Positions 9,273 through 31,084 of a stretch of DNA of 57,037 nucleotides are shown here, piece by piece. The translations under genes and the position numbers were made by a program. Source of the stretch: Candidatus Aminicenantes bacterium (lineage in GTDB: Bacteria; Acidobacteriota; Aminicenantia; Aminicenantales; UBA4085); contig JAFGEN010000159.1 in NCBI GenBank assembly GCA_016931595.1, forward strand, positions 1 through 57,037, written 5' to 3'. Within the stretch, counting starts at the first letter, position 1; each line of letters begins with the position of its first letter. The notes under the pieces were generated by a model. It saw only the letters and a program-made list of their open reading frames with translations. It had not been told where the DNA came from and made no database searches.

Positions 9273-9416
9273 GCTGATAACTCCTGCGGAAAAAACGGGG
9301 GGATTATAGCATATCTCCAGGAAATGTCGGTTGAACGCCCCCGGGGCGGATGATAAAATCCGGGGACGCCGGGGCGATTGACCGCTCCGGCCGCCCCCCG
9401 AGGAAAGGACGGCCGC

Positions 9417-11371: not shown

Positions 11372-11411
11372 GATCTTTGGGCCCCTGTTTTTGAATTATT
11401 GGCGCCTGATT

Positions 11412-12347
11412 TCATCCCAACACATACGCGATCCACAGCCCGGCGGTGTAAAGCAGGCCGAAGTGGAGGTTGTATTTCGCCGTGGCCCCGTCGAGGATGA
11501 CGAAGTCCATCGGCCGGGCCGGCCGGTGCCGCTTCCGAGCCCGGCCCCAGAGCGTCAAGGCCTCGGGGAGCGCGGCCAGGGTGACGAGACACGTCCAGGG
11601 AAGGCGCGGGAGGCCGAAGTGGATGAGCGGGAGGACGGCGAACAACACGACCAGGAACTGGCTGCCGAAGAGGAGGAAGGCGTAGTACCGAAGCGAACCG
11701 CGGTCGCCGAGGAGACCGGCAAAGGTCCTCACCCTCCGCTCCGAATCCGTGGCGATGTCCCGCCAATTGTTGGCATGAAGAATTCCGCTGACGAGCATGG
11801 CCATCGGGATCGTCCAGACGACCGGAAGCCAGCTGCCGCGGCCCGTTTGAACGATCCAGGCGCCGAGAGCCCCCAGGATTCCGAAATCCAGGAACACGGC
11901 CGCGTCGCCCAGGGAGTGGGCCTTGAGCAGAGTGTAGACGGCGCCGATCAACACTCCGACGCCGCCGACGGCCAGGAGAATACAGCTTGTCCGCCACGCC
12001 AGAACGAGGCCCAAAACGATGCCGACGGCGAACAGGAAGACCGCCGCGCGCGCCACTTGGCGCTCCGACAGCCAGCCGCGAACAATCGCCCCGCTGACCG
12101 GCGTCACCCGGGTATCCAGCCCGTGTTTAAAGTCGAAAACATCGCTGAGCATATTGGCCGCCGAGTGGAGGACAACCATCGCCAGAAAGGCTCCCCCGAA
12201 CAAAAGGACGTTCAGCCGGGCCCCATCTATAACGACGGCCAGGCTTGTGCCGAAGATCACGGGCATCGTCGAGGCGGGAAGGGCCCAAGGGCGGGCGGCG
12301 GTCAGCCATTTCCGGACCGGCGAGGGGTCTGTTTCCGCAAATTCCAT
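11412..12347 (-). CDS. UbiA-family aromatic prenyltransferase, MenA-like
   Basis: Start trimmed to ATG 12347 (MEFAETDPSPVRKWLTAARPWALPAS...). Asp-rich motifs NMLSDVFDFKHGLD and NNWRDIATD. Multiple TM helices. 40 nt upstream of the CPBP gene on the same strand. Confidence 0.75.
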   Translation of the reverse strand: MEFAETDPSPVRKWLTAARPWALPASTMPVIFGTSLAVVIDGARLNVLLFGGAFLAMVVLHSAANMLSDVFDFKHGLDTRVTPVSGAIVRGWLSERQVARAAVFLFAVGIVLGLVLAWRTSCILLAVGGVGVLIGAVYTLLKAHSLGDAAVFLDFGILGALGAWIVQTGRGSWLPVVWTIPMAMLVSGILHANNWRDIATDSERRVRTFAGLLGDRGSLRYYAFLLFGSQFLVVLFAVLPLIHFGLPRLPWTCLVTLAALPEALTLWGRARKRHRPARPMDFVILDGATAKYNLHFGLLYTAGLWIAYVLG

Positions 12348-12429
12348 GGGGGAATTATACTGGATTCCGGGGGAAAAGCATGTTATAGTCCCTATCGAAT
12401 CGCTCGACTCTTCCGAAAGGAGGCCGCCG

Positions 12430-13674
12430 ATGTCCAAAGACCGCTCTTTCCTCGACCGACGCCAATTCCTCAAAAACGGGTTCCTGGGAGTCGCCGGAGC
12501 AAGCGCCCTGGCCGCCGTCCCGGCCGCCCTGAAAGGCGGGCAGCAAGCCGCCGCTCCCGCCGCGGCTGCGGCCAAAGCGACGGCCGACTTCATCCGCCGG
12601 CCCCTGGGAAATACCGGGATCAAGCTCCCGGTCGTCTCCATGGGAGTGATGAATTCAAACAACGAAAACCTGATCCAGGCCGCCCTCGACAGCGGCATCG
12701 TCCATCTGGACACGGCCCACGGTTACCAGCGCGGGACAAACGAGGGGGCCATCGGGAAGGTCCTCAAGGGCCGCCCCCGCGACTCCTATTTCATCGCGAC
12801 CAAAGTCCAGGGCGAGCCCCGCGACCGCCGGACGGGGACGTTCTCGGCTGAAACCAAGGCCGAGCCGTTCCTGGAAAAAGTCGACCTGAGCCTCCAGCGC
12901 CTAGGTTTGGACTACGTCGATATCATGTACCTCCACAACGTCTCGAACCGGGACTCGGTCCTCTTCGAACCCCTCATGGGCGCCTTGCAAAAAATCAAGA
13001 AGGAAGGCAAGGCCCGCTTCATCGGGGTGACCACCCACAGCAACGAACATGATGTCGTCCGGGCGGCGACCGAGGCAAAAGTCTACGATGTGGTCCTCGT
13101 CAGCTACAATTTCCGCAAGACCAATTTGGCCGAACTCGACCCGGCCATCGCCGACGCGGCCAAGGCCGGCCTCGGCGTCATCGCCATGAAAACCCAGGCC
13201 GGCGGATTCTGGGACCGGGAAAAAACCGACCCGATCAACATGAAGGCGGCCTTGAAGTGGGCCCTAAGCAACCCCAACATCACCACGGCTATTCCCGGCT
13301 GCACCGCGTTCGACCAGCTGACACTCAACCTCGAGGCCATGACCGACATCAAGCTGACCGATAAGGAGAAAGCCGACCTCCGTCTGGGCGGAGAGGACCA
13401 CGGCGGAGGGCTCTACTGCCAGGGCTGCCAGGCCTGTCTCCCCCAATGTCCGAAGGGTCTCCCGCTTCCCGACCTGATGCGGAGCTACATGTACGCCTAC
13501 GGGTACCGGAACCTCGGCACGGCTTACGACCTGGTCGGCGACCTGGGCGTCGGAACCGACCCCTGCGCCGATTGCGGCGCGTGCGCGGTCAAGTGCACGA
13601 TGGGCTTCGACGTCCGGGCCCGGGTGACAACGATCGCCCAGCTCCAGGCCGCCCCGGCCGAGCTCTTCGGCTGA
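12430..13674 (+). CDS. Aldo/keto reductase with twin-arginine signal and C-terminal Fe-S (ferredoxin-like) Cys clusters
   Basis: ATG 12430 with GAAAGGAGG upstream. Tat motif DRRQFLKNGFLGVAGASALAAVPA. AKR stretches HLDTAHGYQ and DYVDIMYLHN. Cys clusters CQGCQACLPQCP and CADCGACAVKC. Confidence 0.8.
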   Translation: MSKDRSFLDRRQFLKNGFLGVAGASALAAVPAALKGGQQAAAPAAAAAKATADFIRRPLGNTGIKLPVVSMGVMNSNNENLIQAALDSGIVHLDTAHGYQRGTNEGAIGKVLKGRPRDSYFIATKVQGEPRDRRTGTFSAETKAEPFLEKVDLSLQRLGLDYVDIMYLHNVSNRDSVLFEPLMGALQKIKKEGKARFIGVTTHSNEHDVVRAATEAKVYDVVLVSYNFRKTNLAELDPAIADAAKAGLGVIAMKTQAGGFWDREKTDPINMKAALKWALSNPNITTAIPGCTAFDQLTLNLEAMTDIKLTDKEKADLRLGGEDHGGGLYCQGCQACLPQCPKGLPLPDLMRSYMYAYGYRNLGTAYDLVGDLGVGTDPCADCGACAVKCTMGFDVRARVTTIAQLQAAPAELFG

Positions 13675-16354: not shown

Positions 16355-18034
16355 TCAGCCCGCCGCCGGCTTCGGCTTCTTGATGATCACAAGCGTCCGG
16401 TCGTCCTCGGGATCTCCTCCCCCCGAAAACTCCCTGAGGGCGGTGAAGATGTCGGCCAGGATGTCCTCGGCGCATTTCCCGGCCGAGCCCCGGACGGATT
16501 TGATCACGCCTTCCACCCCGAATTCCTCTCCGGCCGCATTCCGGCTTTCGGTGATTCCGTCGGTATAGAGGATGAGAACATCGCCGGAACCCAGGGTGAC
16601 CCGGCCTTCCCCGTATTCGAGCCCGGCCAGCATGCCCAGGGCCATCCCCGTTCCTTCGAGCGGCCGGGTGACGCCGGAGGCGGCCAGGTGCAGCGGGGGA
16701 TTATGGCCGGCGTTGACGTAGCGAAAACCGCCGTCGGCGGGATTGAGCTCCCCATAAAAAAAGGTGATGAACACGTTCGGGGCCGAGCTTCGGAAAATGA
16801 ATTCGCTCAGCTTATGGGCCAGTTCTCCCGGGGCCACCCCCGGCCGGGCCTCCGACTGAAGGGCGGCTCGAAGCGAGGCCATGAGGAGCGAGGCGCTGAC
16901 GCCCTTGCCGGCGACATCGGCGATCGTCAGTCCGAGGCGGCCGTCGGCCAGGGAGATGAAATCAAAGTAGTCCCCGCCCACGTGCAGCGACGGAATCGAC
17001 TCGGCTGAAATCTCGAAATCCCTGCAGACCGGAAAGTCCTTGGGCAGCAGGCCCCGCTGGATTTCGGCGGCCAGGCGGAGCTCCCGCTCCAGGCGCTCGC
17101 GGGCCTGGACATCCTCGACCATTCGGGCGTTTTCAATTTTAACGGCGGCCAAGTTGGCCAGAAGCGTCAGGAGCCGGAGATCTTCCTCGGTGAACGGCTC
17201 CCGGCTCGAAACCCGCTCGGCGCAGACGACTCCCAGCGTCTCCTTCTCGGTCTCCAGGGGAACGCACATCGCCGAATGAAGGCCCATGTCGATGATGCTC
17301 TGGCGGTCGGCAAAGCGCGGGTCCTCGGCCGCGTCGGATGTCAAGACGGACAGTTTCCGGGAAGCGGCCATTTCGACCAGCCCCCGGCTGATCTGCATCC
17401 GGCTCTTCTGCAAGTGGGGATTACTGACCCTGACGGCCCGGGGGACAAGCGTATCGGGGTCGTCGTCCTCCATGAGGAACAGGGCCCCGCGGTCCATCGG
17501 AAGGTGAGAGGAGATCAGGTTCATGATATATTCGAGCAGCTCCTGGAGGGGCTTGTGAATCAGGAGAGCCCGACTGACCTCGTTCATGACGACAAGAAGC
17601 CGGTCGTCCCCGGGAGGCCTTTTTTCCGGCCCCAGAGGCCGCAGCCCGGCGTCCGTGCTCCGGCTGACGATATCGCGCGACGGGAGAGCCGTGCTGACCC
17701 TGACTGAAAGTCTCGGAGAATCAGTGATCTCGACGGCCTCCGTCCAGGGCCGGTCGAAGCAAATGCGGACCGCGCCGATTGAAATTTCGTCCCCCGGGAC
17801 GAGAAGAACGGGTTCGACCACCCGGAGCCCGTTGATCATGGTGCCGTTCTTACTCCCGGCGTCCTCCACGGTCCAACCCCGGGACGTTCTCTTGATCCGG
17901 GCGTGGCGGCTGGAGATGTAGGCGTCGGGCAATCGGACATCGGCATCGACGGCCCGGCCGAGGACGATTTCGTCCTTCTCCAGAACAACGGAAAACGACG
18001 GCGCTTGTTTTGGATACACATAAAGCGTCGACAT
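16355..18034 (-). CDS. FHA-GAF-PP2C (SpoIIE/RsbU-type) serine phosphatase
   Basis: ATG 18034 with GAGGTGA upstream. FHA stretch GRAVDADVRLPDAYISSRHARI...GSKNGTMING. Central GAF-like region. PP2C motifs HVGGDYFDF and LYTDGITE. Confidence 0.85.
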   Translation of the reverse strand: MSTLYVYPKQAPSFSVVLEKDEIVLGRAVDADVRLPDAYISSRHARIKRTSRGWTVEDAGSKNGTMINGLRVVEPVLLVPGDEISIGAVRICFDRPWTEAVEITDSPRLSVRVSTALPSRDIVSRSTDAGLRPLGPEKRPPGDDRLLVVMNEVSRALLIHKPLQELLEYIMNLISSHLPMDRGALFLMEDDDPDTLVPRAVRVSNPHLQKSRMQISRGLVEMAASRKLSVLTSDAAEDPRFADRQSIIDMGLHSAMCVPLETEKETLGVVCAERVSSREPFTEEDLRLLTLLANLAAVKIENARMVEDVQARERLERELRLAAEIQRGLLPKDFPVCRDFEISAESIPSLHVGGDYFDFISLADGRLGLTIADVAGKGVSASLLMASLRAALQSEARPGVAPGELAHKLSEFIFRSSAPNVFITFFYGELNPADGGFRYVNAGHNPPLHLAASGVTRPLEGTGMALGMLAGLEYGEGRVTLGSGDVLILYTDGITESRNAAGEEFGVEGVIKSVRGSAGKCAEDILADIFTALREFSGGGDPEDDRTLVIIKKPKPAAG

Positions 18035-18044
18035 CGATCTCACC

Positions 18045-20471
18045 TCATTTCATCGATTTCAGGATCCGCCGGGCGGCCCGGGCTTTCTCGACCTGAGGCG
18101 CGTCTTCCAGCAGGGGGAGGATGATCTCCTTGACAGCCATCGGAAGGACATTTTCCAAAAGCTCCAGGGCGTAGTCCACGGCCCGCTTCGTTCCCTCGGT
18201 ATAGTTCTGCAGGGCTTGGCTGATGTCCGCATGGGGATAAATCAAGCCGAGAAGGAGGAACAACGGCCGGAAATTGCGACTCGGAGCCGCCCGGTTTTCG
18301 GCGTCCCGGCAGGCGCCCTCGACCCAGCAGCGGACTTCCGGCATGATGTCGCGCTCCCGAAACTTGATGCGTTCGTTGCGGGTCCGGAGCTTGAACAGCG
18401 CCTCGATCACCGCTTCGTGAACCTCGGAATCGCGCCGGCGGAGCTGCCGGACCAGGGCCTCGGCCGCCCGGGGCGTTCCGATCTCGGCCAGGACGAAGGG
18501 CAGGGCCTGCCGGACGGCCCGGTCGGCCCGAAAATCGGCCAGCCAGACACGAAGGACAGTTACGGCCTTGTCGCTGTAAGCGGCCAGAGCCTCGCCCGCC
18601 CGGTCGCTGACCGAGGGACGACCCAGGTGGGGTACGATCAGGGGAAGGTATTCGCGTTTTTTCAACCGCCCGGCGCTTTCCAGGGCGTATTGAACCACAC
18701 CCGGCGACTCGTGCCTCAGCAGGAGGGTCAGATTTTCGGTCAGGGGGGCGTCGGCCGGCATCATGCCCAGGGCTTTGGCCACTTCCATCTGGTCGACCTC
18801 CCGGGCGGGGGCCGCGTCGCCGGCGATCGCGTCGAAGGACGGCCGCATGATATTCTGGTAGGCGTCCAAGGCCAGGACTTCCCGGACGGTCACATCGATC
18901 GGCTCCTTGTCGGAAGGCTCCGACCAGTCGGGGCCGAGGGCCTCGGAATCGGCATCGAGCAGCGTATCGAGGGCCGAAGCCCGGACCTCGGCCGACTTGT
19001 CCGACAGGACCTGGCGGAGCTCGGGGGTCAGCTTTTCAGCCCTCAGGAGGTCGAACAGGTTGTAAGCGTAAAGAACGGAGCTCCGCTCCCGGCTTTCCAG
19101 GAGGTCCAGCAACTGCTTGGCCGTCTCCGGCCGGGCCTGCTCCCGGACGAGGCGCTCGGCGTCAGGGCGCGAGGGGACGAGATTTTCCCGGATTGCCGGC
19201 AGGTAGCGCCGCCCGATCCGGGCGAGGATTAAAAACCACACGACGACGATGGCAATCGTCACCAGGCTCATCCGGGCGGCGGGAAAGGCCAGCACGATTC
19301 CAAAGACAACCTGGAGGAGGCTGGCCAGGGCCTCGCCGGTCTTGCTGACAAACATGTCGATCGTCATTTTGGCCTTGGCCTTGATGTCCTGGGGAACCGG
19401 AATGTAGAGTAGCTCCCGGGTGGCTTGGCTGAAGGTGTGGGTCAGGCTCTTGTCCGCGCCTTTCATGAAGATCGCCCAGGAGGCAAACCCGGCCGCCGGC
19501 AGGAGGAAGAACGCCGCCGATCCGGCCGCCAGGAAAATCGGCATCACGAACAAGGCCGCCCGGACGCCCAAAGCCTGGATCGCCCGGTTTGCCAGGAGTG
19601 AATTCAGGAGCCATGAAACGACCAGGACACCGACGGAAAAAACAGCCAGAAAGGATGTCCGCCGGGCCTCTTCATTTTCGAAGGCGGCTTTGACCGCCAG
19701 ATTGAATTGAAAATCGATCATCGTCGAGGCAGCCAGGGCGACGACGATTAGGGCGGCCAGGAGACGAAGATAAGGTTTCCCGGCAACGGTCCGGAAACCG
19801 TCACGGAAATCCGGCGGCCGGCCTGATGCGGCGGCCGGAGCGGAGGGGGCCTGCCGGACCGCAGCCCGGACAAAGACCGTTCCGGCCAGGTAGAACACCA
19901 GGCCGAGGAGGATGAGGTTTCGCGCCGGCATCAGGCGGGAAAGGAACACGACGATGACGGAACCGCAGATGCCTCCCAGAAGGCCCCCGCTGACAAAAAA
20001 ACTGACCAGGTGCTTGGCCCGCCGCGGCGGACAGACGGACCCGACAACGACCCAAAACTGCGTGACGGAAGCCAGGACAAAGATTTCCAGCCAGAACCAG
20101 TAAAGGGCCGGAACAATCGACCGGCCCGGACCGAGGTCGCGGGTCAGCCAGAACAGGAAGAAAAAGGCGGAGGTTCCAAGGGCGAAAAGCCACCGGGTCA
20201 GGGACAGGTAGGCCCGGCGGTCGAGAGAGCGGATTTTTTTCGTGTTCCAGGCCGCAAAGACACCGGTCAGAACCGCCGAGACGAAATAGACGAGCGGCAG
20301 GGAGCCCTTGGTCAGCCCCAAGCCGAGGAACAGCGAGGTCTTCGAAACCTTGGAGACGTAGATCGAGGCCATCAGGAAGAAAAAGTGGGCGAAGAGATAC
20401 CCGACAACCCGCTCCTCCCCGGCCTGAACAGGGGCAAATCGCCGGAGAAAGAATCCGAAGCGGCCTTTCAT
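18045..20471 (-). CDS. TLC/NTT-like (ATP:ADP antiporter family, MFS fold) transporter fused to a C-terminal HEAT-like repeat domain
   Basis: ATG 20471 (MKGRFGFFLRRF...); a TTG at 20489 is also possible. N-terminal ~430 aa polytopic, starting EERVVGYLFAHFFFLMASIYVSK. C-terminal ~350 aa of helical repeats (SAEVRASALDTLL, ESPGVVQYALESAGRL, DRAGEALAAY, VRQALPFVLAEIG). The family call is by resemblance only. Confidence 0.55.
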   Translation of the reverse strand: MKGRFGFFLRRFAPVQAGEERVVGYLFAHFFFLMASIYVSKVSKTSLFLGLGLTKGSLPLVYFVSAVLTGVFAAWNTKKIRSLDRRAYLSLTRWLFALGTSAFFFLFWLTRDLGPGRSIVPALYWFWLEIFVLASVTQFWVVVGSVCPPRRAKHLVSFFVSGGLLGGICGSVIVVFLSRLMPARNLILLGLVFYLAGTVFVRAAVRQAPSAPAAASGRPPDFRDGFRTVAGKPYLRLLAALIVVALAASTMIDFQFNLAVKAAFENEEARRTSFLAVFSVGVLVVSWLLNSLLANRAIQALGVRAALFVMPIFLAAGSAAFFLLPAAGFASWAIFMKGADKSLTHTFSQATRELLYIPVPQDIKAKAKMTIDMFVSKTGEALASLLQVVFGIVLAFPAARMSLVTIAIVVVWFLILARIGRRYLPAIRENLVPSRPDAERLVREQARPETAKQLLDLLESRERSSVLYAYNLFDLLRAEKLTPELRQVLSDKSAEVRASALDTLLDADSEALGPDWSEPSDKEPIDVTVREVLALDAYQNIMRPSFDAIAGDAAPAREVDQMEVAKALGMMPADAPLTENLTLLLRHESPGVVQYALESAGRLKKREYLPLIVPHLGRPSVSDRAGEALAAYSDKAVTVLRVWLADFRADRAVRQALPFVLAEIGTPRAAEALVRQLRRRDSEVHEAVIEALFKLRTRNERIKFRERDIMPEVRCWVEGACRDAENRAAPSRNFRPLFLLLGLIYPHADISQALQNYTEGTKRAVDYALELLENVLPMAVKEIILPLLEDAPQVEKARAARRILKSMK

Positions 20472-20496
20472 CGGCTGGGCCTTCCCCAAGCCCGGC

Positions 20497-20844
20497 TCAG
20501 CTTTTTATAAAGCTCGCGAGGGCTTTCTCCTCATTGTCCTGGATATCCAGGACCCGGGTCAGCTGGGTGACTTGAAAGACCAGGAAGAGGCGGGGCGATA
20601 TGCCGGCCAGCTTCAGCCGCCCGCCGGAGTTTTGGGTCGAAATATAGCTGGCCAGGATCTCGCCGATGCCGAAGCTGTCGATGAACGGGACCTTGGCGAA
20701 ATTCATCAGGATGTCGCGCCGGCCTTCTTCCAATTCTTCCTTGACGTGCTGGTGGAGGGAAACGCCGGGCGCGTCCGAACGTCGGATCTCGCCCTCCAGG
20801 TCAAAGACGACGATATTCTCCCGGTCCCGCTTGGTAATCAGCAT
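20497..20844 (-). CDS. STAS-domain anti-sigma-factor antagonist (SpoIIAA/RsbV-like)
   Basis: 115 aa. Typical FIDSFGIGEIL motif (DSxG phosphorylatable Ser) and C-terminal LKLAGISPRLFLVFQVTQL. Confidence 0.85.
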   Translation of the reverse strand: MLITKRDRENIVVFDLEGEIRRSDAPGVSLHQHVKEELEEGRRDILMNFAKVPFIDSFGIGEILASYISTQNSGGRLKLAGISPRLFLVFQVTQLTRVLDIQDNEEKALASFIKS

Positions 20845-20894: not shown

Positions 20895-20910
20895 ATGAGA
20901 ACGCTTCTCC

Positions 20911-20963: not shown

Positions 20964-22103
20964 ATGCCGAGAAGGAGCGAAGCGTCATCCCGGCTGAGAC
21001 GCCTTCGTCCGACTGCGGCTCTCGCTTTGCTCGCCGCCCTTCCGTTTCTCTGTCACTGCTCCCACCGGACCGATATCGCCGTTATCGCTCCGTCCCCGGC
21101 CGGCTCGAGTCCATCCCTGGAAACAACGCCCTTTCCCCCGGCGCCCTATCCGGAGCGCGGCCGGCCCTGCGTCTTCACGGGAGTCGAAACAATCGTCGCC
21201 GTCGGCGACATCCACGGCGCTTACGACGCGTTTGTCGATATCCTGAAAACGATGGGCTTGGTCGACCGCCATCTCCGCTGGACGGGAGGCCGGACGCATC
21301 TCGTCCAGATGGGCGACGTGATGGACCGGGGGCCAAAAGCCCGGGCCGTCATCGACCTCATCCGCCGCCTGGAACGGGAAGCCGAGGAGGACGGGGGAGC
21401 CGTCCATATGCTTCTCGGAAACCACGAAGAGATGAACATCCTCGGCTATTCCTTCGAAACCAAGGGATACGTCACTCCCGAGCAATTCCGCGATTTTCTT
21501 CCCTCCCGGCTCCGAGACCGGAAGGACGCCGAATTCCAGTCCCAGGCCCCCACCTACCAAGAATACAACCGGCTCTGGCAGGAATATATGGACGGCAACC
21601 CCCAGGCCCGGGACCTCTATACCAACACGTTCAACCGAACCTACGGGAGGTGGCTCGCCGGCCGTCCCGTCGTCATCAAGATCAACGACACCGTGTTCGT
21701 CCACGGCGGCCTGACCGAGGCCCTTTCGGTGCTATCCTGCGAGACGATCAATGCCTCGCTCTCTCTCGAATTGGAGCGATACCTGCGGAAAGAGGATTTC
21801 GATTGGGCCTGGATTTACCAGCCCCGGGGCCCGCTCTGGTATCGCGACCTCGCCCTGACCCCCGAGGAGACTCTTCGCGATGAAGTCGACCGCATCCTGG
21901 CCAACCTGAAGGCCCGGGCGATCGTCATCGGCCACTCCCCCGCCCCGGCCTATGGCCTGAATCCCCTCCGGGGCCGGTTCGGGGGCAAGGTTTGGACGAT
22001 CGACACCGGCATCTGGATGAAAGACGGCGGAACGCGGTCCGCCCTGGTTATTAAAAACGATGAAATCCGGTTGATCATGATCGGAAAGGGAGAGGAGAGG
22101 TAG
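20964..22103 (+). CDS. Exported PPP-family (calcineurin-like) metallophosphatase, Ser/Thr-phosphatase type
   Basis: ATG 20964. N-terminal RLRRLRPTAALALLAALPFLCHC signal-like segment. Motifs GDIHG, GDVMDRG, GNHE, VFVHGG, IGHSP. Confidence 0.85.
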   Translation: MPRRSEASSRLRRLRPTAALALLAALPFLCHCSHRTDIAVIAPSPAGSSPSLETTPFPPAPYPERGRPCVFTGVETIVAVGDIHGAYDAFVDILKTMGLVDRHLRWTGGRTHLVQMGDVMDRGPKARAVIDLIRRLEREAEEDGGAVHMLLGNHEEMNILGYSFETKGYVTPEQFRDFLPSRLRDRKDAEFQSQAPTYQEYNRLWQEYMDGNPQARDLYTNTFNRTYGRWLAGRPVVIKINDTVFVHGGLTEALSVLSCETINASLSLELERYLRKEDFDWAWIYQPRGPLWYRDLALTPEETLRDEVDRILANLKARAIVIGHSPAPAYGLNPLRGRFGGKVWTIDTGIWMKDGGTRSALVIKNDEIRLIMIGKGEER

Positions 22104-22107
22104 GAAA

Positions 22108-22944
22108 ATGAGCAAAAGAAGGATAAGGCATCTCGTCTTCGGACTTCTCGTCGCCGGCCTGATTCCGGCCGGGGCGGCGGGCGGGCAAGCTCCCCGGGAG
22201 CCCCAAACAGCCAAGGAGATCGAAGCGTTCCTGAGTTCGGCCCGCGTCGCCTCCGTGGAAAAGGATGCCGAGATGGGGCGATCCCTCCCCTGGCGGGTGA
22301 CCCTTGATGACGGAGAGTTCCAGGCCCGGGCCATGTTCAAGTACATCGACCGCCGGACCGTCCAGTCCTCGCGCCACAGTTACCGGTACGAATTGGCCGC
22401 CTACGACTTCAGCCGCCTCCTTGACCTGGAGATCGTTCCTCCCGTCGTCCTTCGGGACATCGAGGGGTCGCCCGGAAGCCTTCAGTGGTACGCCGAGAAC
22501 TGCCGAAGCGAGCGCGACCGCCGCCGGCTCAACCTGGCTCCTCGCGAACTCGAAGCCTTCCTCCACAGACTCGAAATCGTCCAGATTTTTGAGGCGTTGG
22601 TGAACGACGATTGCGGCGACCAGGACGACACGCTCATTCACAAGGATTCCTGGGAAATTTGCCGGGTCGACTTCTCGGCAGCTTTCCGCCCGTCCCCCTC
22701 TCTTTCCACCGGCTGCCTCGTCCGGCGGTGCTCCCGAACGCTGTTCCACCGGCTCGAAGATTTGAAGCGCCCGGTGATCGCCAACCGGATGAAGCCCTAC
22801 CTGAACGGACAGGAAATCGACGCCCTCTTTCGAAGAGTCCGTCAATTCATCGACCTCATCAAGAACGAAATCCGGGACAAGGGCGAAGCCGCCGTCCTGT
22901 TCGATTTGAAAAATCCGGAGCCGCGGGGAGCGGGCCATGACTGA
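22108..22944 (+). CDS. Signal-anchored PI3/4-kinase-fold protein, paralogue 1 (divergent catalytic loop)
   Basis: Starts 4 nt after the phosphatase stop. N-terminus MSKRRIRHLVFGLLVAGLIPAGAAG. Motifs AMFKY, YELAAYDFSRLLDLEIVPP, ALVNDDCGDQDDTLI and RVDFSAAF align with paralogue 2. Confidence 0.5.
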   Translation: MSKRRIRHLVFGLLVAGLIPAGAAGGQAPREPQTAKEIEAFLSSARVASVEKDAEMGRSLPWRVTLDDGEFQARAMFKYIDRRTVQSSRHSYRYELAAYDFSRLLDLEIVPPVVLRDIEGSPGSLQWYAENCRSERDRRRLNLAPRELEAFLHRLEIVQIFEALVNDDCGDQDDTLIHKDSWEICRVDFSAAFRPSPSLSTGCLVRRCSRTLFHRLEDLKRPVIANRMKPYLNGQEIDALFRRVRQFIDLIKNEIRDKGEAAVLFDLKNPEPRGAGHD

Positions 22945-24340
22945 ACAGGCCGGCGGATCACCCCGCCGTCCGTCCCCGGCCGCCTCAGCGGCCGCCGGTT
23001 TTCTCCGGATGTTCACGGTCATCCGTCCGGAGGAAACGGCCAAGGCCCTCCTCCTCGCCCTGAACAGTTTTTTGATCATCTTCGGCTATTACCAGATCAA
23101 GGCCGTCCGGGAAGGGCTTCTTCTGGCCGCCCACCCGGCCTCGGTCAAAAGCTACCTGGCCATTCCCCAGGCGTTCCTTCTGATATTCGTGATCAAGGCG
23201 TTTTCCCGGGTTTCCTCCAAAGTCCCCCGGCATGTGCTGATCGCCTGGGTCTCGCTGTTCGCCGCCTCCAACCTCCTGGTCTTCATCCTCCTCCACGCCG
23301 CGGGCGTATCCGTCGCCGTCATCGGCCTGGCGTTCTTCATCTGGATCGGGATGTACAATCTCCTCATCCCGGCCCAGTTCTGGGGATTCGCCAACGATCT
23401 ATACGATGAAGCCCAGGGCAAACGGATTTTCCCGCTGATCGCCCTCGGGGCCTCGCTAGGCGGCGTGGCCGGACCGATCGTGGCTCGCCAGCTCATCCCC
23501 CATCTGGGCTCCTACGGGATGATGGCCGTGACGGCGGCCCTCCTGGGCCCCGCCGTCTGGCTGACTTGGAGAATCCATGCCCTTGACCTGCGCGAACATA
23601 GGCGGCTGACGGGCGAAAAGACACCGGCTCAAGCAGCTCCGCTCCAAGCGAAAGGCGGATTCCGGCTGATCTTCACCAGCCGATACCTCCTCCTGATCGC
23701 CCTCATGATGGGCCTCTACAACTTCATCAATGCCCTGGGCGAATATATGTTTTCCGCCCTTCAACAGGAGGTCGCCCTGCGGGAACTGGCGACGGCGGCC
23801 GGCGGCGGGATGGACCTTCAGAAATACATCGGCGTCGCCTTCGCCGGTTATCAATCGCTCGGCAACACAATCGGCCTGTTGATCCAGCTCTTCCTCGTAT
23901 CCCGGATCTTCCGCTGGGTGGGCGTCGCCGGAGCTCTCCTGTTCCTCCCCGTCATCGCCCTGGGCGGCTACGGCTATGCCGCCTTCGGCGCCTCTCTCCT
24001 CCTCTTGAAGTGGATCAAGTCGGTCGAAAACGGCACGGATTATTCGCTGATGAAGACGACCCGATCGGCCCTTTTCCTCGTCACCAGTCGGGAGGAAAAG
24101 TACAAGGCTCAGGCGGCGATCGAAACGTTTTTCGTCCGCGGAGGAGACACGCTCTGCGCCGCCGCGGTTTGGCTGGGGACCGGCGCCCTGGCCTTTTCCA
24201 TCAGGGGCTTCGCGGCTCTCAACGCCGCCGCCGTCATCATCTGGATCGGGCTTTGCCTGTTGATCATCAAGGAATACAAGAGAGTCAAGGCTGCCCGGGA
24301 AGCCGCCCGGATCCCGGCGACCGACGGACCGAGCGAATGA
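22937..24340 (+). CDS. TLC/NTT-like (ATP:ADP antiporter family, MFS fold) transporter
   Basis: ATG 22937 overlaps the upstream stop (ATGACTGA). 467 aa, about 12 hydrophobic helices. N-terminal EETAKALLLALNSFLIIFGYYQIKAVREGLLLA parallels the 18045-20471 paralogue. The family call is by resemblance only. Confidence 0.55.
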   Translation: MTEQAGGSPRRPSPAASAAAGFLRMFTVIRPEETAKALLLALNSFLIIFGYYQIKAVREGLLLAAHPASVKSYLAIPQAFLLIFVIKAFSRVSSKVPRHVLIAWVSLFAASNLLVFILLHAAGVSVAVIGLAFFIWIGMYNLLIPAQFWGFANDLYDEAQGKRIFPLIALGASLGGVAGPIVARQLIPHLGSYGMMAVTAALLGPAVWLTWRIHALDLREHRRLTGEKTPAQAAPLQAKGGFRLIFTSRYLLLIALMMGLYNFINALGEYMFSALQQEVALRELATAAGGGMDLQKYIGVAFAGYQSLGNTIGLLIQLFLVSRIFRWVGVAGALLFLPVIALGGYGYAAFGASLLLLKWIKSVENGTDYSLMKTTRSALFLVTSREEKYKAQAAIETFFVRGGDTLCAAAVWLGTGALAFSIRGFAALNAAAVIIWIGLCLLIIKEYKRVKAAREAARIPATDGPSE

Positions 24341-24374
24341 CAACCCGGCTTGGGACCGGGGAGGAGGACCCATC

Positions 24375-25205
24375 ATGAGCAAAGCGAAAAAGAGGATTTT
24401 TGCGCTGGCGGTTCCGGCGGCCCTGGCCGTCATCCTTGCAGCTCAATTCAACCCGGATGAAATCAGTCGGGACAGGGATTGGGAAGAGTTTCTGTCGAAG
24501 GCCGAGATGACCGTGGAAAAGCAGATGACCGGTCCGGGAGCCGTCACCAATCCGTACAAAATGCTTTTGGAAATGGACGGCCGGAAGCGCTTCGCCGCCT
24601 GGAAAAATCCCCAGGGACGGATGGGGGGAGCCATGGAAGGCTGGATGTGGGAAATCGCCGCCTACCGGCTCGACCGCTGGCTCGGCCTGAACATGGTCCC
24701 CGTGACGATCGAACGGCGTTTTCGGGAAAACAGGGGTTCGCTCCAGCTCTGGGTCGAGGGGACGTTCCCCTACCTGGAGATCATGGAAGGCCGGACCAAG
24801 ATGCCGGGCGGAATGAAGGGCGTTCTCCTCAACCGCCAGGTCTATCTCCAAAGAGCCTTTGACGACCTGATCTACAACGAAGACCGCCATGCCAACAACA
24901 TCCTGATCACCGACGACTGGAGAATGATTCTCATCGACCATTCCCGTTCGTTTCGGACATCGAAGGCCTCGCTGACCACCCTGCTTTACAACCCAAAAAG
25001 CCGAACCCATCCGGGGACCATCTCCGCCCTGCCGTCGGCATTCGTCGAGAAGTTAAAAGCGCTGACCCCGGAGATCGTCCGGACGATCGTCGAATCTTAT
25101 CTGACCAAGAAAGAAATCGAGGCGGTCATGGTCCGCCGCGATTTGATTCTGAAGGAAATCGACCGGTTGATCGCCCTCAACGGGAAAGCCCAGGTTCTTT
25201 ATTGA
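24375..25205 (+). CDS. Signal-anchored PI3/4-kinase-fold protein, paralogue 2 (canonical DRHxxN loop)
   Basis: GGAGGAGG RBS. N-terminus MSKAKKRIFALAVPAALAVILAAQ. Motifs FAAWK, WEIAAYRLDRWLGLNMVPV, LIYNEDRHANNILI and ILIDHSRSF resemble type-II PI4K / PI3-4-kinase catalytic and activation segments. Confidence 0.6.
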   Translation: MSKAKKRIFALAVPAALAVILAAQFNPDEISRDRDWEEFLSKAEMTVEKQMTGPGAVTNPYKMLLEMDGRKRFAAWKNPQGRMGGAMEGWMWEIAAYRLDRWLGLNMVPVTIERRFRENRGSLQLWVEGTFPYLEIMEGRTKMPGGMKGVLLNRQVYLQRAFDDLIYNEDRHANNILITDDWRMILIDHSRSFRTSKASLTTLLYNPKSRTHPGTISALPSAFVEKLKALTPEIVRTIVESYLTKKEIEAVMVRRDLILKEIDRLIALNGKAQVLY

Positions 25206-25620
25206 AGACCTTGCGAAGGACGAGGACATTTTCCCCGCCTTCGCGCCTGTAAGTCAGCTCGTCGGAAAACGTCCGGACCAGGTGAACCCCCAGGCCGCCT
25301 ATTTTCCTGCCTCCAAGGATGTCGTCCAAGGCCGGCGGCGGAGCCGCCAGCGGATTGAAGGGGACGCCGCGATCGCGGATCTCCAGGTAAACCGATTCAG
25401 GCTCCGGCCGGACGGTCAAACGAATCTCCCCGGCCGCGGCAGGATACCCGTAGCGGACAATATTCACGAGGATTTCAAAAAGCGCCAGGTCGAGTTGAAA
25501 CAGGCTTTCGCCGTCGAGGGGCCCTTCCCGCAACCGTCCTTTCAGGAACAGCCGGGCCCGGTCGATCTCGCCCAGTTCGGCGGGAATCGTTAGGCTGTCC
25601 GGCCCTTCGTCCGCGCTCAT
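25177..25620 (-). CDS. RsbW/SpoIIAB-like anti-sigma serine kinase (HATPase_c)
   Basis: 147 aa. N-box EILVNIVRYG, G1 IRDRGVPFNP, G2 GGLGVHLV. The 3' end overlaps the convergent 24375-25205 gene by 29 nt. Its start overlaps the stop of the GT9 gene lying upstream of it on the minus strand (ATGA). Confidence 0.8.
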   Translation of the reverse strand: MSADEGPDSLTIPAELGEIDRARLFLKGRLREGPLDGESLFQLDLALFEILVNIVRYGYPAAAGEIRLTVRPEPESVYLEIRDRGVPFNPLAAPPPALDDILGGRKIGGLGVHLVRTFSDELTYRREGGENVLVLRKVFNKEPGLSR

Positions 25621-26778: not shown

Positions 26779-27471
26779 TCAAGACTCTTTTTCGGGGGTC
26801 CTGGGAAGGCCCTTCTTCTCGATATGGTGCTTGATCGTCTTGCCCTTGACCATGTAGATGACGTCCTCGGCAACGTTGGTCGCGTGATCGGCCATCCGTT
26901 CCAGGTTTCGGCTGACGAGAATCAGGGCGACCGCGCGCTGAATGTTGCGGGAGTCCTGCATCATGAAGGTCAGGAGCTCCCGGAAAATCTGATCGTCCAG
27001 GGCATCGACCTCATCATCCCGGATGCAGACGTCCCGGGCCAGGGCTTCATCCCTGTTGATGAAGGCATCGATAGAGTCACGGACCATGGCCTGGGCCGCC
27101 CGGGCCATCCGGGGAATGTCGATCAGGGGCTTGAGCAGGGGCAGGCGGGCCAGGTCCAGGGCCAGTTCGGCGACGTTGACCGCCAGGTCGCCCATCCGTT
27201 CCAGGTCGCCGCTGATTTTCATGGCTGAGGTGATGAACCGAAGGTCGCCGGCCATCGGCTGGCGGAGGGCCAGGAGCCGCATGCAGGTCTCGTCGACCTC
27301 GACGTCGAGAAGATTGATGTTTTCCTCGATTTTCAGGACTTCCCGGGCCGGCTCTTCCTTCTGGTCCTTCAGGGCCTCGATGGCCAAGGACAAGGCATCC
27401 TCAACCGAGGCGGCCATCCGCAGGAGTCGTTCCTTGAGAAATTGCAGTTCTTCGTCGAATACGCGTTCCAT
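26779..27471 (-). CDS. phoU: Phosphate signalling complex protein PhoU
   Basis: Start trimmed to ATG 27471 (GAAGGAG RBS). Two PhoU repeats with DLERMGDLAVNVAE and NLERMADHATNVAED. Confidence 0.9.
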   Translation of the reverse strand: MERVFDEELQFLKERLLRMAASVEDALSLAIEALKDQKEEPAREVLKIEENINLLDVEVDETCMRLLALRQPMAGDLRFITSAMKISGDLERMGDLAVNVAELALDLARLPLLKPLIDIPRMARAAQAMVRDSIDAFINRDEALARDVCIRDDEVDALDDQIFRELLTFMMQDSRNIQRAVALILVSRNLERMADHATNVAEDVIYMVKGKTIKHHIEKKGLPRTPEKES

Positions 27472-27634
27472 GTGGGCTCCTTCCCGGCCATTTTCGGATA
27501 TTCGACCCGTTTTGGCAATAGTCCCGGGAAAATAGGCCGGGTCCGCCTCAGAATCACCGATTCCTGTTAAGTCGGGATGAATAAACCATGAATTCTTCCT
27601 GAAACCGGCCATTTTTTTCTAATGGGCGATTCCC

Positions 27635-27663
27635 TTGACAGAATTCCAACCCCTTTCTATAAT
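27635..27663 (+). promoter_or_regulatory. Consensus sigma70 promoter upstream of pstS
   Basis: TTGACA 27635-27640, exactly 17 nt spacer, TATAAT 27658-27663. ATG of pstS is at 27692. Confidence 0.7.
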
Positions 27664-27691
27664 TCCATCTCAAATCCCATATTGATTCCGT

Positions 27692-28603
27692 ATGGAGACC
27701 ACTGTGAGGACGAAGGAGGAGCGGGCCCCTATCCGGACTGGGCTTCGAGCCTTCATCATTATGGGAGCCGTCCTGCTTGCGGCCGCGGCCTGCGGAAGAC
27801 GGCCATCCGGCTCCTCGGGAGGCACAGCCCTTCAAATCAAGGGCTCCGACACCATGGTGAACCTCGGGCAGGCCTGGGCCGAAGCGTTCAACAAGCTCCA
27901 TCCGGAAATCAATATCGCCGTCACGGGGGGAGGCTCCGGGACGGGAATCGCCGCAATTTTCAACCAAACCTGCGACGTCGCCGAATCCTCCCGCGGCCTG
28001 GAGGAGAAGGAACTCCAGGCGGCCGAGACGGCCGGATTCGTCATCCATGAGACCATCGCCGCCCTCGACGGGATCGTCGTGGTCGTCCATCCGTCCAACC
28101 CCGTCTCCGCCCTGACCATGGAGGAGCTTCGGGAAATTTTCATGGGACGCGTCAAGCGCTGGACCGCGTTCGGCGGCGAGGACCGGCCGATCGTCCTCCT
28201 CTCCCGCGAGGTCAACTCCGGCACCCACATCTTCTTCAAGGAGCATGTTCTCCGCCGGGGCAAAAGCAAGGGCCCGGAAGAATTCGCTCCGGCCGCCCTG
28301 ATGATGCCTTCCTCTTATGCCATCGCCGAGGAAACTTCCCGAAACGAAAACGCCATCGGCTATTACGGGCTCGGATACATCAGCCCCCGCCAGAAGGTCC
28401 TGGCCGTGGCCACGGACGCTCATACCCCGGCCGTCGCCCCGACGATCGAATCCATCAGGGCCAACACCTATCCGATTTCCCGGCCCCTCTATTTCTTCAC
28501 CCGCGGGGAACCGTCCGGGACAGTCAAAGCCTTCCTCGACTTCGCCCTCTCTCCCGCCGGCCAGGACATCGTCAGAGCCATCGATTTCGTCCCAGTCAAA
28601 TGA
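27692..28603 (+). CDS. pstS: Phosphate ABC transporter substrate-binding protein PstS
   Basis: Lipoprotein-like signal GAVLLAAAAC. GSDTMVNLGQAWAEAF and SREVNSGTH stretches typical of PstS. Confidence 0.9.
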   Translation: METTVRTKEERAPIRTGLRAFIIMGAVLLAAAACGRRPSGSSGGTALQIKGSDTMVNLGQAWAEAFNKLHPEINIAVTGGGSGTGIAAIFNQTCDVAESSRGLEEKELQAAETAGFVIHETIAALDGIVVVVHPSNPVSALTMEELREIFMGRVKRWTAFGGEDRPIVLLSREVNSGTHIFFKEHVLRRGKSKGPEEFAPAALMMPSSYAIAEETSRNENAIGYYGLGYISPRQKVLAVATDAHTPAVAPTIESIRANTYPISRPLYFFTRGEPSGTVKAFLDFALSPAGQDIVRAIDFVPVK

Positions 28604-29481
28604 AGCTTCCGTCGCGCCGGCTCCGCGAATTCCTGATCGAAAAGCTCATTTTTCTCAGCGGGATCGCCTCCGTCGTTTTCGTTGTCTTGATCTTCATCTT
28701 CCTTCTCAGGGAGGGCGTTTCCGTCCTGAAAACAACCTCCCTCGGATCCTTCCTGGGCGGACATTTCTGGTATCCCATCTCCACCCCGGCCAAGCTGGGG
28801 ATTCTCCCCCTGATTCTCGGGTCGCTCATGGTCACGGCCGGGGCGATCGCGATCGCCGTTCCGCTCGGCATCGCGGCCGCATTCTACATCGCCGAGGTGG
28901 CCCCGAAGCGCCTCCGGACGGTCCTGAAATCCTGCGTCGAGGTCCTCGCGGCCATCCCCTCGGTCGTCCTCGGATTTCTGGGCATCACCGTCCTGGTCCC
29001 GTTCCTGAAAAGCGTCTTCAACCTGCCGACCGGGCTGACCGCTTTTTCCGGTTCTATTATGCTGGCCTTCATGGCCCTGCCGACGATCATCACGATCTCG
29101 GAGGACGCGATCAACGCCGTCCCGCGCGAGTATAAGGAAGGGGCCCTTGCCCTCGGGGCAACCCACTGGCAGACGCTCTTCCGGGTCGTCATCCACGGGG
29201 CCCTGCCGGGGATCATCGCCGCGGCCATGCTCGGCATCGGCCGGGTCTTCGGCGAAACGATGGCCGTCATGATGGTCACCGGGAACGCGGCCGTCATCCC
29301 CCAATCCCTGTTCGAGCCCGTCCGGACCCTGACCGCGACCATCGCCGCGGAGATGGGCGAGGCGGCCAAGGGCAGCGCCCATTACTTCGCCCTCTTCGCC
29401 GTCGGGATCGTCCTGTTCGTCATCAGTTTCGCCATCAACCTGACCGCCGATATCCTCCTGAACCGGGGCAAGAAGAAATGA
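28600..29481 (+). CDS. pstC: Phosphate ABC transporter permease PstC
   Basis: ATGA overlap with pstS. Polytopic. Conserved loop ALGATHWQTLFRVVIHGALPGI. Confidence 0.9.
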   Translation: MKLPSRRLREFLIEKLIFLSGIASVVFVVLIFIFLLREGVSVLKTTSLGSFLGGHFWYPISTPAKLGILPLILGSLMVTAGAIAIAVPLGIAAAFYIAEVAPKRLRTVLKSCVEVLAAIPSVVLGFLGITVLVPFLKSVFNLPTGLTAFSGSIMLAFMALPTIITISEDAINAVPREYKEGALALGATHWQTLFRVVIHGALPGIIAAAMLGIGRVFGETMAVMMVTGNAAVIPQSLFEPVRTLTATIAAEMGEAAKGSAHYFALFAVGIVLFVISFAINLTADILLNRGKKK

Positions 29482-30320
29482 AGCGCGAAGACAAACGGCA
29501 GAACATCGGCTTCGGCGCGCTGCTGGCGGCCACGCTCCTGGTCGTCATCCCGGTCCTGGCCATCGTCGTTTTAATCGTCGCCAAGGGCTGGGGGGCCCTG
29601 TCCTGGGAATTCCTGTTCTCCATGCCCCGTGACGGGATGCGGGCCGGCGGGATTTTCCCGGCCATCGTCGGGACGATTTACCTGGTTTTCATCTCGCTGA
29701 TTTTCGCCCTTCCGATCGGGGTGATGGCCGCGATCTATCTTTCCGAATACGCCAAGGACAACGCCCTGACCCGGGTCATCAACCTGGCCATCATCAACCT
29801 GGCCGGCGTGTCGTCGGTCGTCTTCGGCCTGTTCGGGCTGAGCCTGTTCGTCGTGTTCCTGAAGTTCGGCGTCTCCATCATTTCCGGAGCCCTGACCCTG
29901 GGAATCATGACCCTTCCGGTCATCATCACCACGACCCGGGAGGCGCTACGTTCGGTTCCGGCCTCTTACCGGGAAGTCAGCTTTTCCCTGGGCGCCTCGC
30001 GCTGGCAGACCGTTCGGCACGCCGTTTTGCCCCGGGCGCTTTCGGGCATCCTGACCGGAGCGATCCTCAGCGTCGGCCGGGTGGCCGGAGAAACCGCCCC
30101 GATTCTCTTCACCGTGGCCGCGTTTTATCTGCCCAATCTCCCGACAGGATTATCCGATCAGGCCATGGCTTTGCCCTATCATCTCTACGTCATCACCACC
30201 CAGATTCCGGGCATCCCCGAGTCATTCCGCTACGGGACGGCCCTCGTCCTTATCGGTTTTGTCCTGGTGATGAACATCATCGCCACCGTCATCCGGTCGA
30301 AAGCGGGAAAGAAGCGATGA
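29478..30320 (+). CDS. pstA: Phosphate ABC transporter permease PstA
   Basis: ATGA overlap with pstC. Loop SLGASRWQTVRHAVLPRALSGI. Confidence 0.9.
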   Translation: MKREDKRQNIGFGALLAATLLVVIPVLAIVVLIVAKGWGALSWEFLFSMPRDGMRAGGIFPAIVGTIYLVFISLIFALPIGVMAAIYLSEYAKDNALTRVINLAIINLAGVSSVVFGLFGLSLFVVFLKFGVSIISGALTLGIMTLPVIITTTREALRSVPASYREVSFSLGASRWQTVRHAVLPRALSGILTGAILSVGRVAGETAPILFTVAAFYLPNLPTGLSDQAMALPYHLYVITTQIPGIPESFRYGTALVLIGFVLVMNIIATVIRSKAGKKR

Positions 30321-31084
30321 ACACGGCGGGCGAGAAGGTCAAGTTGTCGGTGCGCGGCCTGGCCGTTTCTTACAGCGCCGCATCCGCTCTCAGAAGCCTC
30401 GACTTGGATATCGTCGCCGGGGAGATCCTCAGCATCATCGGACCCTCCAACTCCGGGAAGACTTCGTTCCTCCGCAGCCTGAACCGGATGAACGAGCTTC
30501 ACCCCCACGCGCGTACATCCGGGACCATCCTCCTGGACGGCGTCGATATCGTCCGGGAGATATCGGCTGAATCGCTTCGAAAAAGAATCGGGATGATTTT
30601 CGCCATGCCCGTGCCTCTGCCCTTGTCCATCCGGGATAACATCACCTACGGACCACGAATGGCCGGGGTCCGGGACACCCGGACGCTCGACGCCCTGGTC
30701 GAGGAAAGCCTACAGGCCGCCTATCTCTGGGACGAAGTCAAGGACCGGCTGGACATGTCCGGGCAGAAGATTTCCGGCGGCCAGCAGCAGCGGCTGTGCA
30801 TCGCCCGCACCTTGGCCCTCAAGCCCGACGTGATTCTCTACGACGAGCCCTGCTCCGGCCTGGACCCGCTATCGACGGCCAAGGTCGAGGAGTCGATGCT
30901 CGAGCTCCGCAAGAGCCATACCCTCGTCCTGGTGACCAACAACACCAAGCAGGCGGCCCGGGTCGGAACCCGGACGGCCTTCTTCCTGATGGGCGAGATG
31001 GTTGAAATCGGCCCGACCGAAAAAATCTTCACCGCCCCGGCCGACAAGAGGACGGAAGACTATATCGTCGGACGGTTTGGATGA
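30317..31084 (+). CDS. pstB: Phosphate ABC transporter ATP-binding protein PstB, copy 1 (atypical Walker A, Q-loop and H-loop)
   Basis: ATGA overlap with pstA. Walker [11 protein letters not shown]-loop position reads GMIFAMP, signature SGGQQQRL, Walker B ILYDEP, H-loop position reads VTNNTKQA. C-terminal [10 protein letters not shown]. Confidence 0.9.

Follow-up and report, generated by a model that had tools for sequence, protein, structure and literature searches.

If a bacterium secretes kinases, from where do they obtain their nucleotide? In the textbook view the periplasm is free of ATP, and its processes are driven by energy coupled from the inner membrane. The question is raised by four genes on a 57-kb contig (JAFGEN010000159.1, 57,037 nucleotides, hereafter the window) from a metagenome-assembled genome (MAG) of Candidatus Aminicenantes, an uncultured sediment bacterium. 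They encode a Shewanella-like (Shelph) PPP-family metallophosphatase with an export signal (20964-22103, + strand), an exported kinase-like protein with a degenerate catalytic loop, termed K1 (22108-22944, +), an inner-membrane transporter of the TLC/NTT family with 12 helices and no HEAT domain, termed T (22937-24340, +), and K2 (24375-25205, +), a paralogue of K1 with a signal peptide and a fold resembling type II phosphatidylinositol 4-kinases (PI4K) and FAM20. Database proteins identical to proteins of the window were found (P0001 and P0121; locus tags JW843_06010 and JW843_06005).

A preliminary description had read these genes as an extracytoplasmic phosphorylation module, in which ATP exported by the transporter fuels periplasmic kinases and the phosphatase acts as the eraser. 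Our analysis confirms the observation and supports the reading in part. We propose a conserved envelope phosphorylation module in which T swaps cytoplasmic ATP for periplasmic ADP and thereby fuels exported kinases, with the phosphatase reversing the modification. We regard this proposal as about equally likely to prove right or wrong.

Proteins of the four-gene operon

The four genes are packed as an operon, as had been claimed. At the phosphatase/K1 junction the TAG stop is followed by a 4-nt gap with GGGAGAGGAGAGG upstream, the K1 stop overlaps the T start in ATGACTGA, and a 34-nt gap with GGGGAGGAGGAC precedes K2 (all three junctions read from the sequence). The phosphatase start at 20964 is preceded by the ribosome-binding site GAGGAGAGG; an alternative upstream ATG lies at 20895. 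The peptides that had been quoted for these proteins (FAAWK, EIAAYRLDRWLGLNMVPV, LIYNEDRHANNILI, ILIDHSRSF and the N-terminal stretches) are all present in the translations.

The assignment of K2 to the PI3/4-kinase fold, close to type II PI4K, holds. An AlphaFold2 model built from an alignment of 46 homologues (A1) reached a predicted local distance difference test score (pLDDT) of 89.5 and a predicted template-modelling score (pTM) of 0.87. A Foldseek search of the PDB with this model returned PI4K II beta and alpha on top (E 4e-8, probability 1.0), with template-modelling (TM) scores of ~0.47-0.49 on the query and ~20% identity, followed by Vps34 and PI3K. Comparison of the K2 profile with PDB sequences pointed to FAM20A (4.4e-5), FAM20C (0.012-0.014), FAM20B (0.02) and the C. 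elegans homologue. The FAM20 match consists of two short aligned stretches, the alphaC-like and catalytic loops (EIAAY.LD..L....VPP, LI.N.DRH and IDxxRxF), and Foldseek prefers PI4K II. Among 159 K2-type sequences from 80 species-level loci, K77, E93, N168, D170, R171, D188, H189, R191 and F193 are invariant; (H/T)172 and N/Q175 are also conserved. K2 therefore possesses a DRHxxN-type catalytic loop, a metal-binding Asp and an ATP-binding Lys, and it is predicted to be a catalytically active kinase.

K1 and K2 are full-length paralogues (hhalign of K1 against the K2 family: probability 100, E 6.5e-45), and K1 has no Pfam match. The kinase-fold paralogy of the two proteins had been recognized correctly, whereas the view of K1 as a second active kinase does not stand. 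In K1 the DRH loop is replaced by a variable stretch rich in acidic residues and Cys, and 44 of 61 orthologues have Cys in the position of the catalytic Asp (D170); the Lys persists in 57 of the 61 and the DFG-like Asp in 60. K1 is thus probably a pseudokinase or a nucleotide-binding adaptor, as far as its residues tell, which leaves one predicted active kinase, K2, in the window. A conserved disulfide in K1 was also considered and rejected, since the first Cys of the CxxxxC pair is absent from several orthologues. At ~20 loci of related species the phosphatase and K1 are fused into one polypeptide of ~620 aa with K1 at the C-terminus. Some members of the wider family are tandem double-kinase-domain proteins ('K2-K2' and 'K1-K1'); one of them, P0253 (671 aa), is the only family member that we saw above the Pfam gathering scores of Fam20C and HipA_2 (29.4 and 29.8 bits).

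All three exported proteins carry N-terminal export signals. Every one of the 46 K2 homologues has an n-region with 2-4 Lys or Arg residues, a hydrophobic core and a small-x-small site, which in every one ends in the invariant A↓QF(T/K)PEE (…ILAA↓QF in K2 of the window; the arrow marks the cleavage site). By these features the N-terminus of K2 is a textbook cleavable Sec signal peptide. The kinase-like proteins had been described as signal-anchored and facing the periplasm; their export signals are borne out, whereas the invariant cleavage site rules out an anchor for K2. In the wider family, 106 of 139 full-length representatives pass our crude signal-peptide rule, and one of the 139 has a twin-arginine (Tat) motif, RRRQFLK. 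After cleavage at the predicted site all K2 homologues would begin with an invariant Gln, a candidate for conversion to pyroglutamate. A glutaminyl cyclase gene (PF05096) follows the TLC gene at one distant locus (L090:13260-14045, +).

The phosphatase matches Metallophos in Pfam at 5e-15. Its closest PDB sequences by far (phmmer) are 2z72, 1v73 and 2zbm at ~1e-31, and the match spans both halves of the catalytic domain. Entries 2z72 and 1v73 are the Shewanella cold-active protein-tyrosine phosphatase, or psychrophilic phosphatase I (PPI), the founding member of the 'Shewanella-like' (Shelph) PPP group (PMC535813). The PPP motifs GDxHG, GDxxDRG and GNHE are intact in the translation (VGDIHG, MGDVMDRG, LGNHE), and motifs and similarity together place the protein among the Shelph phosphatases. 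Its role as a Ser/Thr eraser is not established, because the nearest characterised relative, the Shewanella enzyme, is Tyr-specific and the substrate specificity of bacterial PPPs is not predictable (PMC535813). The N-terminus consists of a basic stretch and a hydrophobic signal. Orthologues at ~60 loci all start with a signal peptide of this basic/hydrophobic type, after which a conserved I(P/Q)C(V)WTG comes next; the claimed export signal of the phosphatase is thus upheld. A lipoprotein was considered on account of the sequence …LPFLC and dismissed: the signal peptides of the orthologues are ordinary, and the conserved Cys follows an acidic residue without a lipobox.

For T, the proposed membership of a 12-helix transporter in the TLC/NTT family is well founded. 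T scores 42.1 bits against Pfam TLC (PF03219; gathering score 21). A profile from 46 homologues (A2), compared with the whole PDB, matched only NTTs, namely NTT1 of C. pneumoniae (9j3n, 2.4e-10) and of Arabidopsis (9j3j, 7.7e-4), with the common motifs FWGFAN(D/E)I and K.KAAI(E/D). Foldseek ranks 1-4 for the AlphaFold2 model of T (pLDDT 83) are again the C. pneumoniae and Arabidopsis NTT1 structures (TM 0.62-0.73, E 1e-10 to 1.5e-8); generic carriers of the major facilitator superfamily (MFS), such as MdfA and SV2A, appear from rank 5 at E ~1e-7, about three orders of magnitude behind the NTTs. An ordinary MFS carrier is ruled out by these matches. From counts of Lys and Arg, the K/R-rich N-terminus, central loop and C-terminus are placed in the cytoplasm. 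Judged by profile and fold, T is a true but distant member of the NTT family, not an equivalog.

Linkage in Aminicenantes and in distant genomes

In species-representative genomes 427 matches to the K2 family were counted; nearly all of the best 80 come from Aminicenantes/Acidobacteriota, with 49-82% identity. For the linkage we counted 54 species-level loci that include at least 6 kb of sequence ahead of the terminal K2. The phosphatase is present at 46 of these and K1 or a phosphatase-K1 fusion at 48. T occurs in the fetched flanks at 38 loci (within the cluster at 37 of them), and a second type of TLC protein with a HEAT-repeat domain (NTT-HEAT) likewise at 38; at least one of the two is found at 44 loci and both at 32. 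One or two additional K2-type paralogues are common. The claimed extent, 20964-25205, is correct for the four genes, whereas the conserved unit is larger and also includes 16355-20844 and 25177-25620; the NTT-HEAT and partner-switching genes encoded there had been overlooked.

In the window these genes are a STAS-domain protein resembling the anti-sigma antagonists RsbV/SpoIIAA (20497-20844, - strand; Pfam STAS 2.9e-13), an NTT-HEAT transporter of 814 aa (18045-20489, -; TLC 8.2e-11, HEAT_2 7.8e-11), an FHA-GAF-PP2C phosphatase of the SpoIIE/RsbU type (16355-18043, -; SpoIIE 4.4e-50, GAF 3.4e-20, FHA 1e-18) and an RsbW/SpoIIAB-like serine kinase (25177-25620, -; HATPase_c_2 6.9e-26), whose gene converges on K2, the two 3' ends overlapping by 29 nt. 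The NTT-HEAT protein reaches 41.8 bits against Pfam TLC, its C-terminal HEAT-repeat domain is cytoplasmic, and T shares 20% identity with it over 343 aa (E 5e-8). A phosphorylatable Ser is present in the STAS protein (DSFG within the FIDSFGIG motif of the translation). A STAS protein, a HATPase_c_2 kinase and a PP2C phosphatase, the components of a partner-switching set, are co-located, and this arrangement is conserved. By its domains FHA-GAF-PP2C is presumably the phosphatase of this set. The conserved unit includes no sigma-factor gene, and the NTT-HEAT gene lies inside the operon between the STAS and FHA-GAF-PP2C genes; hence, the transporter may itself be the output of the partner switch.

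The RsbW-like gene lies directly downstream of the terminal K2, in convergent orientation, at 56 of 71 loci. The STAS/NTT-HEAT/FHA-GAF-PP2C operon is attached in two ways: it lies divergently upstream (the arrangement of the window) or on the downstream side, where the order is RsbW, PP2C, NTT-HEAT, STAS. Since the linkage survives this rearrangement, it points to functional coupling.

Beyond the class, a HMMER scan of 1.84 billion cluster representatives yielded 4,260 K-family clusters at E <= 1e-3 and 1,817 at <= 1e-10. Among the top 150 clusters, 18 are Metallophos-K fusions. We inspected a distant sample of nine fusion loci and one lone K gene. A locus from Polarisedimenticolaceae (L075) was left out, its high-GC sequence containing many spurious open reading frames (ORFs). 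In a homologue search with a mixed alignment (A4) the Metallophos domain prevailed, and fusions and stand-alone phosphatases came back in place of lone K proteins, which confined the distant sample to fusions and the one lone K gene. The distant fusions each start with a signal peptide, and their kinase domain retains N.DRNxGN and IDH(T/S)R(S/A)F.

At eight of the nine fusion loci the phosphatase-kinase fusion adjoins an NTT-HEAT(-cNBD) gene or a HEAT-less TLC gene, mostly with translational coupling. The fusion is followed by NTT-HEAT after a 10-nt gap at L085 and by a HEAT-less TLC gene at L090. At L088 and L089 the order is NTT-HEAT, cNMP-binding protein, fusion, and at L091 it is NTT-HEAT-cNBD, response regulator, histidine kinase, fusion; at L093 and L094 NTT-HEAT-cNBD overlaps the start of the fusion. 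In a Lysobacter sp. MAG (GCA_050737695.1, L087) the fusion is convergent with a 487-aa gene (11817-13280, -) that has no Pfam call and is clearly a T-family transporter by the T profile (E 2.5e-90). This locus suggests that culturable Gammaproteobacteria may carry the module. Its T-family gene and fusion sit just after secDF. Because TLC genes are few per genome, we consider the adjacency of fusions and NTT genes very unlikely to arise by chance. The gene order is thus conserved in dozens of species-level genomes, the cluster spanning about 80 species of Aminicenantes, and, as fusions beside NTT genes, in distant lineages. Kinase fold, export, grouping of T with the NTTs and gene order, the four points on which the preliminary description had said that it could fail, all came out in its favor. 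The link of NTT-HEAT to exported phosphatase-kinase proteins, seen at these eight loci, appears to be new.

Several genes near the cluster were noted in addition. In several Aminicenantes an SdiA-regulated/Phytase-like beta-propeller gene lies on the opposite strand between T and K2 paralogues (L001:5295-6137, L003:6029-6871 and L004:6029-6895, all -); it is absent from the window, and its product could be a partner or substrate. A Hanks-type Ser/Thr kinase with a Tricorn/PD40 beta-propeller adjoins the cluster in one Aminicenantes locus (L003:1-432, -), and a similar Ser/Thr kinase (L092:11052-13577, +) adjoins the lone K gene of the distant sample, which has a Tat signal and stems from an unrelated 6.2-Mb genome. 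About 1.5 kb downstream of the cluster, the window contains a PhoU gene (-) and a PstS-like phosphate-binding gene (+), the latter followed by three ORFs resembling pstCAB (26779-31084 in total); no such linkage was seen at the other loci examined.

Elsewhere in the window a DsbD homologue is encoded at 7278-9656, which fits a diderm with a periplasm. A 1182-aa protein (311-3859, +) combines PilZ, acyltransferase and methyltransferase domains in an unusual architecture. Two large ORFs of 551 and 861 aa (11196-12851 and 40204-42789, both +) have no Pfam match at E <= 1e-5; the former overlaps another 551-aa ORF (12019-13674), which makes the gene calls in this region uncertain. No RNA families came out of an Rfam scan of the window, and a promoter and terminator scan gave only consensus-level matches inside coding sequence, which were not used.

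Proposed source of the nucleotide and rival explanations

A kinase fold cannot work without a nucleotide donor, for which the periplasm offers no source, and the linked NTT carrier is therefore a natural supplier. In the proposed module, K2 and, in relatives, one or two further K2-type paralogues would be active kinases secreted to the periplasm via cleavable Sec signal peptides. T and/or NTT-HEAT would most likely exchange cytoplasmic ATP for periplasmic ADP, and such an obligate exchange would keep the adenylate pool without net loss. The co-exported Shewanella-type PPP phosphatase would remove the phosphate, and K1 would most likely serve as an adaptor or a regulator, on the model of the pseudokinase FAM20A. 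In Aminicenantes the cytoplasmic STAS, RsbW and PP2C proteins would probably gate the supply through the HEAT domain, a role that cNMP-binding or two-component proteins may fill in other lineages. Folds, motifs, export signals, the family of the transporter, synteny and fusions are observed; what is transported and in which direction, whether the kinases are active, whether they modify protein, glycan or lipid, and how the supply is regulated are inferred. A wider generalization is put forward more tentatively, and on balance we would lean slightly against it: the NTT carriers of free-living bacteria, including NTT-HEAT(-cNBD), may be regulated ATP/ADP exporters that energize a hitherto unrecognized exported kinase family of more than 4,000 sequence clusters together with its Shelph phosphatases, so that many diderms would possess ATP-dependent, reversible periplasmic phosphorylation under cytoplasmic control by partner-switching, cNMP or two-component inputs.

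A number of observations weigh against ATP export to secreted kinases. K2 matches no Pfam or NCBIfam model at threshold: it stays below the Pfam gathering scores of PI3_PI4_kinase (PF00454; 19.2 vs 27.1 bits), Fam20C (PF06702; 14.9 vs 26.8 bits) and HipA_2, and has a weak TIGR03843 match. T scores 42.8 bits against the 387.2 cut-off of TIGR00769, the model for NTP/NDP exchangers, and it is nearer the uncharacterised NTT-HEAT clade (1e-28 to 1e-40) than the assayed NTTs (2.4e-10). To our knowledge, every characterised NTT imports nucleotides. The phosphatase has weak matches to ApaH/PrpE diadenosine tetraphosphatases (1.6e-8 and weaker, well below the cut-offs), and as PPP relatives include such enzymes, it may act on nucleotides. 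No TLC gene lies nearby at ten of the 54 Aminicenantes loci, at the distant fusion locus L086 or at the lone Tat-signal K gene L092. The signal-peptide calls were made by our own crude rule-based scripts, not by SignalP, and periplasmic ATP could leak through porins.

The distance of T from the assayed NTTs leaves room for another cargo. Substrates known for NTT members include NAD, all four NTPs and other nucleotides (PMC5381601), and NTT-HEAT is always paired with cytoplasmic signalling proteins, either STAS/RsbW/PP2C or cNMP-binding proteins, histidine kinases and response regulators. T and NTT-HEAT could therefore be the regulated output of a signalling device, or its partner, and not a supply of ATP. 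They would move a different solute (another nucleotide, a cyclic nucleotide, a dinucleotide, NAD or some phosphorylated metabolite), which the exported kinase and phosphatase would produce, degrade or sense in the periplasm, or these two would modify the periplasmic face of the carrier; the weak similarity of the phosphatase to diadenosine tetraphosphate (Ap4A) hydrolases would agree with this. We take this explanation seriously and nevertheless hold it to be rather unlikely, as a kinase fold with invariant Lys/Asp/Asp still needs a nucleotide donor outside the cytoplasm, and the match to the protein-tyrosine phosphatase (1e-31) is far better than that to ApaH.

Aminicenantes are sediment heterotrophs, the characterised NTTs are all importers, and in the window a PhoU/Pst phosphate-uptake operon lies just downstream. 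T might then import environmental nucleotides, as the NTTs of parasites do, after the exported proteins have processed extracellular nucleotides or organic phosphate. Such scavenging is improbable in our opinion: the phosphatase would destroy the very di- and triphosphates that NTTs carry, a kinase could not raise them without an external energy donor, the Pst linkage was seen at none of the other loci examined, and a phosphatase-kinase fusion together with a pseudokinase suits a writer/eraser pair more than a catabolic pathway. Still more remote are toxins or effectors that would be directed against neighbours or hosts and use the ATP of the target, the link to the transporter being only regulatory, or accidental. 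Bacteria do secrete many kinase-fold proteins that act as effectors in the cytoplasm of target cells, and a signal peptide alone leaves the final destination unfixed. The conserved cluster, however, contains no secretion-system, immunity or delivery genes and is a core cluster, vertically conserved across the whole class with 49-82% identity, and the translational coupling to an inner-membrane NTT at eight of nine distant loci would be unexplained; we consider this explanation very improbable.

Should ATP export to secreted kinases be confirmed, a dedicated ATP supply would overturn the picture of an ATP-free periplasm for a large bacterial group, and a function would be found for the NTT and NTT-HEAT transporters of free-living organisms, which are enigmatic. 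An NTT would be seen to work as an exporter, whereas a 2026 preprint describes NTTs as importers of ATP and knows of no ATP exporter other than the mitochondrial carrier (10.64898/2026.03.31.715626). The kinases would be a prokaryotic counterpart of the FAM20-type secretory kinases and possibly related to them. The proposal is directly testable, because the parts are small and soluble or easily expressed, and the Lysobacter-type locus points to culturable carriers.

Comparison with known systems

The preliminary description had stated that it knew of no such system. We likewise found no bacterial periplasmic kinase or ATP-export system and no later functional work on NTT-HEAT in the literature, of which our coverage is incomplete, so that a prior description may exist elsewhere. 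NTT, NTT-HEAT and NTT-HEAT-cNBD proteins were reported as widespread in free-living bacteria and of unknown function by Major, Embley & Williams 2017, who considered ATP uptake or exchange and did not mention phosphoesterase or kinase neighbours or the periplasm (PMC5381601). The 814-aa neighbour has exactly the NTT-HEAT architecture described there, and T is nearer that clade. The characterised NTT/TLC translocases of Chlamydia, Rickettsia and plastids (TCDB 2.A.12; 9j3n, 9j3j-9j3m) share the 12-helix MFS-type fold with T. Otherwise T stands apart: it is only 14-19% identical to them, its score is far below the equivalog cut-off, its host is free-living with its own ATP synthesis, and the outward movement of ATP proposed for it runs opposite to that in every characterised member.

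Among the neighbouring genes, the STAS protein with its DSxG serine, the HATPase_c_2 kinase and the PP2C phosphatase resemble RsbV, RsbW and RsbU. The conserved unit differs from the Rsb system in lacking a sigma factor and in the NTT-HEAT transporter located between the STAS and PP2C genes. The phosphatase of the window shares the GDxHG/GDxxDRG/GNHE motifs and 1e-31 similarity with Shewanella PPI. It differs in its setting, next to an NTT carrier and together with a kinase-fold protein, to which it is joined in one polypeptide at some loci.

PI4K IIalpha/beta are the best structural match of K2 and have the DRHxxN-type catalytic loop in common with it. K2, in contrast, is secreted and soluble, and a phosphoinositide substrate is not expected in bacteria. 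In their logic the eukaryotic secretory-pathway kinases FAM20C/A/B are a parallel: kinase-fold enzymes enter an extracytoplasmic compartment via a signal peptide, an active kinase is accompanied by a degenerate paralogue (K2 with K1, as FAM20C with FAM20A), and a nucleotide exchanger is needed in the membrane of the compartment, which for the lumenal ATP of FAM20 is the ATP/ADP exchanger AXER/SLC35B1. K2 differs in its size (~250 aa versus >400 aa in FAM20), in its lack of cysteines and hence of FAM20-type disulfides, and in being structurally nearer type II PI4K and below the Fam20C threshold. The carrier belongs to the NTT/MFS family and not to SLC35, and a dedicated PPP phosphatase is encoded in the module or fused into it.

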